Shown in pieces: positions 10,623 to 11,725 of a stretch of DNA of 21,065 nucleotides. The notes under the pieces were generated by a model, which saw nothing but the letters and a program-made list of their open reading frames with translations, searched no databases and was not told the origin of the DNA. Numbering within the stretch: position 1 is the stretch's first letter; each line of letters begins with the position of its first letter. The DNA is taken from IMG/VR virus record IMGVR_UViG_2778261619_000010, positions 1 to 21,065 of that record. One strand, given 5' to 3'. Made by a program: the position numbers and the translations under genes. Source of the DNA: a virus (Duplodnaviria; Heunggongvirae; Uroviricota; Caudoviricetes).

Positions 10623-10991
10623 TTAGTCAGCGAAGGTTAAGACGAGAATTACCTTAATGATGTCTGCTACAACAGACACGGCCATAGATAAACCAAAGAC
10701 GATCCAAGCCACAGTGATGTCTTCACTACCATCGTATAGAGTTCCGTAATCACTGGTGTAAGGCGTAAATGTCGCGCCTTGATACAATAGGTATAAGCTT
10801 GATCCATAGAGGATAAATGCAGATATCCCTTGTATTGCTATGATCACAAGAATCATGAAACGAGCTGATCTATGCGCCCAAGCCTGGCTTATTTTTTCTG
10901 ATAGAGATTTCGCAATAAAAGCATGCGCTAAGACGTAAATTGTCGAGATTGCCAACATCCCAAAAAAGCTTGCTATAGCGGTTCCAACCAT
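10623..10991 (-). CDS. small polytopic membrane protein (about 122 aa, 3-4 TM) encoded directly downstream of cI in the lysogeny operon (rex position)
   Basis: ATG at 10991 with AAGGGG upstream, 17 nt after the cI stop. Strongly hydrophobic throughout (TM about 2-24, 46-70, 93-120). The ORF-track start at 11012 is a TTG. Confidence 0.6.
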   Translation of the reverse strand: MVGTAIASFFGMLAISTIYVLAHAFIAKSLSEKISQAWAHRSARFMILVIIAIQGISAFILYGSSLYLLYQGATFTPYTSDYGTLYDGSEDITVAWIVFGLSMAVSVVADIIKVILVLTFAD

Positions 10992-11008
10992 AATCGCCCC
11001 TTGCGTGA

Positions 11009-11725
11009 TCAAACCAGCCTTAGTTTTGTCTCAATTGCAACGCCTATAATCTTGCAGTTTCCATTGATTGGCACGAGAGGCCATGCAGGATTAAGTCCCT
11101 TGAGGTATTTATTTCCGCCGTCGATTATCAGCTTCTTGAATGTTGCTTCGTTAGAGTCAGAAAGTTTTGCTATGACCAAGCTGCCGTTGATCGCCTCCCT
11201 TCCGGTATCGAAAAGAACGAATGTTCCCTCTGGAATGCTTAACCCAACCGGTGCCGTCATTGAATCACCTTCCACTTTAAGCCAAAACGCATTACCTTGA
11301 ATATGCGCGTCAGACTCAAGCCAAACATCTATGTCTTTAATGGTGTATGGTTCGCATGCTTCACACCACGAGCCAGCCTGGATACTGCTTAACACCGGAT
11401 ACCTCTTTCCTGCTCTGTATTCCCCTGCATACCTTACGTTGGCATCGCTCTTAAGGCTTTCTGCCTGTTCTGCAACCTTGGCAGCAATTGACTGGCTAAA
11501 ATCAGCAATTGAGACTTGCAACAATCGTGCAAAACCAGATGCAACCTCAACGTTTAGCGCGTTTCTGCCATTAAGATAATGCCCTACCGCTCCTTGGGTG
11601 ATACCCAGTTCATCAGCGATTGAGTATTGGGTTATTCCCAATTCTTTCTTTTTTGACTCATACAAAGCCTTAAGCCGCTTAGCGTCTTCGAGCTGTTCTG
11701 TCGTCAGTGATTTTTTATTTTCCAT
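11009..11725 (-). CDS. cI: lambda CI-like repressor (HTH_XRE N-domain plus S24 LexA-like autopeptidase C-domain)
   Basis: 238-aa product, similar along its length to lambda CI as I recall it: LTTEQLEDAKRLKALYESKKKELG; Ala-Gly cleavage site in SSIQAGSW; catalytic Ser in VEGDSMTAP and Lys in FKKLIID. Confidence 0.9.
   Translation of the reverse strand: MENKKSLTTEQLEDAKRLKALYESKKKELGITQYSIADELGITQGAVGHYLNGRNALNVEVASGFARLLQVSIADFSQSIAAKVAEQAESLKSDANVRYAGEYRAGKRYPVLSSIQAGSWCEACEPYTIKDIDVWLESDAHIQGNAFWLKVEGDSMTAPVGLSIPEGTFVLFDTGREAINGSLVIAKLSDSNEATFKKLIIDGGNKYLKGLNPAWPLVPINGNCKIIGVAIETKLRLV

Follow-up and report, generated by a model that had tools for sequence, protein, structure and literature searches.

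Genes found between cI and OL in lambdoid phages

The interval between the repressor gene cI and the left operator OL is the most strongly lysogen-expressed position of lambdoid prophages, in which cargo of an anti-phage or lysogeny-tuning kind is found repeatedly. Phage lambda carries rexA-rexB in this slot, and 434 and Sf101 carry hex. The interval from cI to N has been described as a mosaic hotspot, presumably under the strong repressor promoter, with bstA in BTP1 and rexAB in lambda (PMC8585504). We analyzed the slot in a window of 21,065 nucleotides, i.e. the whole stretch taken from IMG/VR virus record IMGVR_UViG_2778261619_000010 (positions 1 to 21,065; Caudoviricetes). Here it is occupied by a single small gene, hkaS, which follows cI on the minus strand and encodes a predicted inner-membrane protein with three transmembrane (TM) helices. 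We tentatively favor the view that HkaS is an inner-membrane exclusion factor acting against heteroimmune phages, independently of virion type.

The content of the slot was compared between phages. Serratia phage OS31, whose cI is 71% identical, has no open reading frame (ORF) at this place, and the slot is also empty in P22 and mEp213. In Enterobacter phage BHUENT3 it contains two ORFs unrelated to hkaS. In the Shiga toxin (Stx) phage TL-2011c (locus L022, 3388-5678) a DNA methyltransferase gene and then a restriction endonuclease gene are found, both co-oriented with cI. Since related cI repressors are accompanied by an empty slot or by other cargo, hkaS has to be regarded as optional cargo.

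Two of these loci call for a short description. The TL-2011c pair resembles a restriction-modification system placed in the rex position. The two BHUENT3 ORFs (locus L014, 1941-3386) encode a 127-aa protein with CxxC pairs and a 109-aa protein in which a coiled coil is combined with a hydrophobic helix at the C-terminus. The BHUENT3 repressor has a C-terminal domain very like that of the HK620 type and a different N-terminal DNA-binding domain; it looks domain-swapped.

Identity and organization of the hkaS locus

The window is collinear with phage HK620 from position 9982 to 11865 (98.9% identity), and positions 10400-11800 are 99.6% identical to it (AF335538). In the GenBank record of HK620 the corresponding gene is named hkaS and labelled "unknown" (protein AAK28867). 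Residues 1-120 of the protein are 100% identical to HK620 HkaS (tblastn), and PHROG 6534, a family listed as of unknown function, matches it over residues 1-122 of 122 (E=1.1e-78). Judged by these alignments, the gene of the window is HK620 hkaS, i.e. PHROG 6534, already catalogued with unknown function. The gene itself is thus not new, being annotated in HK620 (GenBank AF335538), and its presence will not surprise a specialist. The features of the locus are as follows.

10623..10991, minus strand: hkaS coding sequence, 122 aa plus TAA stop (ORF list, translation, alignment with HK620 HkaS, PHROG 6534)
10997..11002, minus strand: Shine-Dalgarno sequence AAGGGG, 5 nt 5' of the hkaS ATG (sequence reading)
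11009..11725, minus strand: cI repressor, 238 aa, with HTH_3 and Peptidase_S24 domains (Pfam, HK620 annotation)
11736..11809, no strand given: OR3-OR2-OR1 and the divergent pRM/pR region (coordinates carried over from the HK620 annotation, +/-1 nt)
10591..10616, minus strand: hairpin AUCCCGG...CGGGAU, beginning 7 nt past the hkaS stop (RNA fold), no U-tract
10442..10541, minus strand: block of OL1-OL3, pL and tIMM, left edge of the immunity module (coordinates from HK620, +/-1 nt)
9982..10254, minus strand: antiterminator gene N, first gene of the pL operon and far border of the slot (Pfam N_peptide, 6.5e-16; PHROG 271)

The longest ORF at the hkaS locus (10623..11012, minus strand) begins with a TTG and would give 129 aa. 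Translation from the ATG at 10991, the conserved start, yields the 122-aa product. Immediately 5' of this ATG the diverged Salmonella homolog has an in-frame TAA, so that the TTG extension is not conserved. The stop codon of cI (TGA, 11011-11009) is separated from the hkaS ATG by a gap of 17 nt, TCACGC-AAGGGG-CGATT, which includes the Shine-Dalgarno sequence; AAGGA or AAAGGA motifs are present at the equivalent site in diverged homologs. The cI of the window is 100% identical to that of mEpX2. Because a 17-nt spacer is too short for a terminator, we infer that hkaS is co-transcribed with cI, and the pRM/pR region is presumed to provide the promoter of this transcript.

Between the hkaS stop and N, the ORF list and the HK620 annotation indicate only OL, pL and nutL signals. 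The hairpin which follows hkaS, a candidate terminator or stabiliser, is found nearly identical in a Hafnia-type locus (L011), and an unrelated GC-rich palindrome occupies the same place in another locus (L007, about 5380-5400); there is no clear U-tract in any of them. The terminator tIMM annotated in HK620 is situated about 60-100 nt beyond this hairpin and overlaps OL3. A 65-aa ORF with a TTG start (10330-10527, minus strand) runs across pL, OL and nutL and overlaps operator and boxA signals. Although listed as a hypothetical protein in both HK630 and phi296, it probably results from an error of gene calling.

The HkaS protein

HkaS was searched for in large protein collections. A word-indexed search of 5.8 billion proteins returned 12 clusters from E. 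coli, Hafnia and Salmonella, all of the HkaS family. When 1.84 billion cluster representatives were searched exhaustively with an HMMER profile, 2 matches were obtained, both again of the HkaS family. A sequence search of the PDB gave no match, and the only line obtained with NCBIfam is 'lnt' at 14.9 bits for a cut-off of 132.9, i.e. noise. Within the reach of these searches, HkaS is an orphan family.

Three hydrophobic segments are visible in the hydropathy profile (residues ~3-27, 44-71 and 94-121). The AlphaFold2 (AF2) model, built on a 7-sequence alignment, is a confident one, with a predicted local distance difference test score (pLDDT) of 92.3 and a predicted template modelling score (pTM) of 0.79; it contains helices 2-29, 31-38, 41-74 and 89-121, and a short beta-hairpin within loop 2. 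In all lineages loop 1 is basic (net charge +3 to +5) and loop 2 is acidic (net -1 to -4). By the positive-inside rule, these charges predict an N-out/C-in arrangement, i.e. N terminus outside and C terminus in the cytoplasm. HkaS is predicted to be an inner-membrane protein with three TM helices. The original prediction, made from the letters of the window, had announced a small membrane protein of about 122 aa behind cI, starting 17 nt past the cI stop with its own ribosome-binding site. Both statements hold, on the basis of the ORF list, hydropathy and the AF2 model for the first, and of the AAGGGG motif for the second. It had also counted 3-4 TM helices: the polytopic character is retained, and hydropathy and the model give three helices, not four.

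The topology class and the size range of HkaS are those of class I holins of the lambda S / P22 gp13 type, which have three TM helices in the N-out/C-in orientation. One may therefore think of a holin- or antiholin-like protein of lysis timing. The likeness to these holins is one of topology only and we regard this explanation as very improbable. The gene belongs to the lysogenic operon and not to a late lysis cassette, and a holin made constitutively in lysogens would be lethal. The protein ends in ...ILVLTFAD, without the charged cytoplasmic C-tail. There is no conserved dual start, since M12 varies within the family and conservation does not reach into the upstream extension, and no holin family of Pfam is matched.

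Selection and distribution of hkaS

The divergence of hkaS was measured against homologs 82%, 60% and 52% identical. The ratio of nonsynonymous to synonymous substitution rates (dN/dS) is 0.15-0.20 where dS is unsaturated, nonsynonymous change being far below synonymous change. The 122-codon ORF is intact in 80/80 copies retrieved from IMG/VR. A spurious ORF is unlikely: from these two results and the full-length match to PHROG 6534, hkaS is a genuine gene under purifying selection and not a chance ORF. A full-length copy is present in 146 of 5,426 complete E. coli genomes (about 2.7%), always on the chromosome.

The neighborhood of the gene is constant. In IMG/VR, hkaS adjoins an HK620-type cI in all of the loci with upstream sequence (79/79), and the gap between the two genes is 17-20 nt across the examined loci. 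In every locus examined, regulatory DNA of 350-490 nt separates hkaS from N on its 3' side, and cro is divergent on the other side. The cI-hkaS-N arrangement is also found in Salmonella, Hafnia and other loci where HkaS is only 52-60% identical. The proportion of synonymous differences (pS) is alike for cI and hkaS in two comparisons, 0.47 vs 0.44 and 0.82 vs 0.80, from which it follows that the two genes have been inherited as one unit. At the protein level HkaS changes about 4-5 times faster than cI. The operator block 3' of hkaS is strongly conserved across diverged lineages.

The cassette is carried by phages of different backgrounds: the Lederbergvirus HK620, the Lambdavirus HK630, mEpX2 and HK140 of the Hendrixvirinae (two genera), the Traversvirus phi296, and also Stx2c phages. 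The linkage to cI is most simply explained by structure: hkaS is flanked by OR and OL, these operators have to remain with the repressor that recognizes them, and hkaS thus travels with any exchange of immunity. No copy away from cI was found on plasmids or in bacterial genomes sampled at one per species. From its distribution, hkaS belongs to the HK620-type immunity module as an accessory gene ("moron").

Such a tie to one repressor might mean that HkaS is a lysogeny modulator, which from the membrane would tune repressor stability or the cI/Cro switch, e.g. by binding cI or by limiting its RecA-stimulated cleavage; it would then act on the induction of its own prophage and not on incoming phages. 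The nearest well-studied cI lineage, that of 434 (52% cI identity), has hex, and Hex stabilises the repressor against RecA (PMC3564112). In lambda a two-hybrid interaction between RexB and CI has been reported, and the Rex proteins modulate induction (bioRxiv 10.1101/2021.04.19.439022). In addition hkaS has remained attached to a single cI/operator specificity while synonymous divergence became saturated. Among the best-conserved parts of HkaS are the basic cytoplasmic loop, invariant at 8/16 positions, and the end of TM3 on the cytoplasmic side, invariant at 10/15. This role is a serious alternative to exclusion, if on balance an unlikely one. Related cI genes work with an empty slot, so that cI does not need HkaS; HkaS is unrelated to Hex (hhalign probability 0.08%); and only about 16 of its residues form the cytoplasmic loop. 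Conservation is 0.64 on the cytoplasmic face vs 0.53 on the periplasmic face, a difference which is not significant (p=0.11), and the linkage to cI is explained by the OR/OL enclosure.

Possible function of HkaS

The function which we tentatively favor, exclusion of heteroimmune phages at the inner membrane, is suggested by the cargo found elsewhere in the slot and by the class of proteins which HkaS most resembles in architecture. Characterised stand-alone small membrane proteins of prophages are mostly exclusion proteins; T4 Imm, HK97 gp15 and P22 SieA are stand-alone proteins of the inner membrane which act in superinfection exclusion. The gene has been kept under selection across five virion types, which differ in receptors and injection machinery, for which reason the function of HkaS cannot hinge on the virion or the injection machinery of its carrier. 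In the proposed scheme, hkaS would be transcribed together with cI; pRM would serve in lysogens, and pRE while lysogeny is being established. The protein would be inserted N-out/C-in and would be constitutively present in the inner membrane of every lysogen. There it would shield the lysogen from heteroimmune superinfection, either through a block of genome translocation as in the stand-alone membrane proteins of superinfection exclusion, or through membrane collapse after infection, with no need for an adjacent RexA-like sensor. This role is inferred from position and from analogy.

Several observations weigh against an exclusion role. No Pfam family matches HkaS at E<=1, although the positive controls are strongly recovered (lambda RexB, 8.5e-92; P22 SieB, 4.3e-29; lambda RexA). 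This negative result would include the T4 Imm family, presumably represented in Pfam, for which no T4 Imm control was run. With the models of PADLOC-DB v2 no family matches HkaS at E<=10, and fold searches with the AF2 model return generic helix bundles only. The comparison with P22 SieA, one of three sequence types of SieA, gives an hhalign probability of 0.3%, and for SieB (PF14163) there is no Pfam match and an hhalign probability of 0.1%. Moreover sieA and HK97 gp15 adjoin the virion genes on which they act, P22 sieA being a neighbor of the ejection-protein genes. By contrast, hkaS remains with the immunity module and moves between virion types. Outside the membrane HkaS consists only of a cytoplasmic loop of about 16 residues and a periplasmic loop of about 22 residues, with no obvious sensor or binding domain, and so little extramembrane sequence argues against an elaborate sensor. 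The linkage of hkaS to cI, being explained by the OR/OL enclosure, is uninformative on function. A non-defence role is documented in the slot itself, since Hex of 434 is reported to block RecA-mediated autocleavage of the repressor and to stabilise lysogens (PMC3564112). A scan for consensus promoters and terminators found 0 promoters and missed tIMM, despite the pL and pR annotated in HK620, so that its failure to reveal a second promoter like pLIT is uninformative. Finally, no functional study or experimental phenotype of hkaS was found in the searchable literature, including work on HK620 exclusion and on mEpX2, HK630 and HK140.

A more ambitious form of the exclusion hypothesis can be formulated, which we consider possible but doubtful. 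HkaS would be the founder of a defence family made of a single gene, without a sensor and with three TM helices, which would block the entry of diverse heteroimmune phages or depolarise the membrane upon infection. Confined to a single immunity module, such a family would have moved with it through podovirus, siphovirus and Stx-phage backbones. If this is true, lambdoid immunity regions contain, as a fixed unit, a further protective layer which does not depend on the repressor.

State of the prophage and neighboring regions

The prophage of the window is incomplete. Homology with HK620 stops at 11865/11866 (BLAST), within cro.

11832..11865, plus strand: cro remnant, first 11 codons only (34 nt)

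Past position 11865 the sequence continues with a C-terminal fragment of the terminase large subunit (ORF 11774-12631, Terminase_3 match). The region which runs from cro into the first part of the terminase, with the genes of replication, nin, Q and lysis, is missing. A coat-protein ORF (12763-13653) comes almost directly after the terminase fragment; its match to the P22_CoatProtein profile is limited to positions 124-423, i.e. the C-terminal 300 residues. The portal, the scaffold and the N-terminus of the coat protein are thus absent, and this partial match right after the terminase fragment implies a second internal deletion (positions 12631-13653). The head-completion, needle and ejection-protein genes 3' of the coat ORF look full length. 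As read from its gene content, the prophage is a deleted, non-inducible remnant, which cannot enter lytic growth because the cro-to-terminase region is missing.

OR, cI, hkaS, OL/pL and N are retained intact in this remnant, which should therefore still make HkaS and confer HK620-type immunity together with any effect of HkaS. The shared immunity region is ~99% identical to HK620, so that the retention of hkaS may be recent and is not by itself evidence of selection.

An intact hkaS in a remnant unable to make phage, and in 146 E. coli genomes, could also be expected if HkaS were a factor of lysogenic conversion, bringing to the host a benefit unrelated to phages such as tolerance to envelope stress, handling of ions or small molecules, or fitness in colonisation. 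Its constitutive place in the most highly expressed lysogenic operon of the prophage would suit this explanation, and so would the lack of similarity to defence families; bstA, a gene of the same slot, was initially tied to virulence phenotypes (PMC8585504). We regard this explanation as unlikely, to the same degree as the lysogeny modulator. Pfam, NCBIfam and PDB searches reveal no transporter, channel or enzyme signature in HkaS, the gene has not spread beyond the immunity module among the plasmids and one-genome-per-species genomes searched, and its intactness in the remnant may simply be recent.

The remaining regions of the window were described briefly. Between N and the integrase gene (positions 8441-9981) the early-left region is reduced to a few small ORFs: a 60-aa protein of PHROG 5305, a DUF551 protein, and ORFs of 85 aa and 117 aa. 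The HK620 genes kil, cIII, hkaP (a putative SieB-like exclusion gene) and hkaQ are outside the HK620-homologous stretch, which begins at N (9982).

6755-7972, minus strand: integrase

Outside the prophage, positions 1661-4021 and 4198-5349 contain a 786-aa protein with an N-terminal domain of type I restriction HsdR, beside transposase fragments of the IS3 family (rve domains). These fragments are annotated as frameshifted IS3/IS600 in related E. coli genomes. This HsdR/IS3 area, next to the integrase, may be a neighborhood of defence-island type.

Significance of hkaS

The hkaS gene is an orphan found in tractable model phages (HK620, HK630, mEpX2 and HK140) and in about 2.7% of complete E. 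coli genomes, including Stx-phage backgrounds. If HkaS is an exclusion factor, it represents a new minimal family of membrane defence, which would help to explain patterns of cross-resistance among lysogens and defective prophages like that of the window. If on the other hand it tunes induction, it bears on the stability of Stx prophages with the HK620 immunity type.

Comparison with known systems

The original prediction had placed the gene at the rex position and proposed a channel like RexB or an exclusion factor. The reading of the slot is sound, as shown by rexAB in lambda, hex in 434 and Sf101, bstA in BTP1 and the TL-2011c pair. HkaS resembles RexB by its location in the same cI-OL slot and in the same orientation, by a presumed co-transcription from pRM ending at tIMM, and as a small polytopic protein of the inner membrane. 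Its position is that of rexB, and its transcription from pRM is presumed from the 17-nt spacing. RexB is further characterised by the exclusion of T4 rII and other phages, with depolarisation of the membrane. The two proteins differ in architecture: RexB has four TM helices with both termini in the cytoplasm (cited in bioRxiv 10.1101/2021.04.19.439022), whereas HkaS has three, is predicted to be N-out/C-in, and is devoid of the sensor partner RexA (PF15969), for which a Pfam match was obtained in lambda only.

That HkaS might be a divergent RexB homolog, i.e. an ion-channel effector of abortive infection (Abi) of the RexAB family whose RexA has been lost or relocated, is hardly credible. Slot, orientation, operon position and the nature of a small polytopic membrane protein speak for it. 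The Pfam RexB model (PF15968) is not matched at E<=1, the hhalign probability is 0.7%, TM numbers are 3 vs 4, and there is no ORF between cI and hkaS or between hkaS and OL which could encode RexA. The absence of a RexA-like partner and of similarity to RexB had been noticed in the original prediction, and the remote-homology search it called for, with RexB and SieB, returned no match (0.7% and 0.1%). Its logic of the slot is preserved, and membership in the RexB family fails, whether judged by sequence, by number of TM helices, by topology or by partner gene. At the sensitivity available, with Pfam, hhalign, topology and the missing RexA, homology to RexB is refuted.

Hex shares with HkaS the slot and a similar size (134 aa); it is translated from the pRM messenger and belongs to the closest classical cI lineage, the cI of 434 being 52% identical (PMC3564112). 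It differs in having one N-terminal signal-like hydrophobic segment followed by a polar remainder, and is unrelated in sequence, as stated above. BstA and the TL-2011c pair are likewise defence cargo placed directly 3' of a prophage repressor, as hkaS is. BstA is however a soluble DNA-binding Abi protein, and the TL-2011c genes encode enzymes; these proteins are neither small membrane proteins nor relatives of HkaS in sequence.

The exclusion phenotype of SieA, in which P22-like DNA delivery is blocked through the ejection proteins, has been defined experimentally (PMC10883804). SieA, Imm and gp15 are single small membrane proteins, which need no partner gene and are expressed from a prophage (early in infection in the case of T4). 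This class is the closest to HkaS in architecture.

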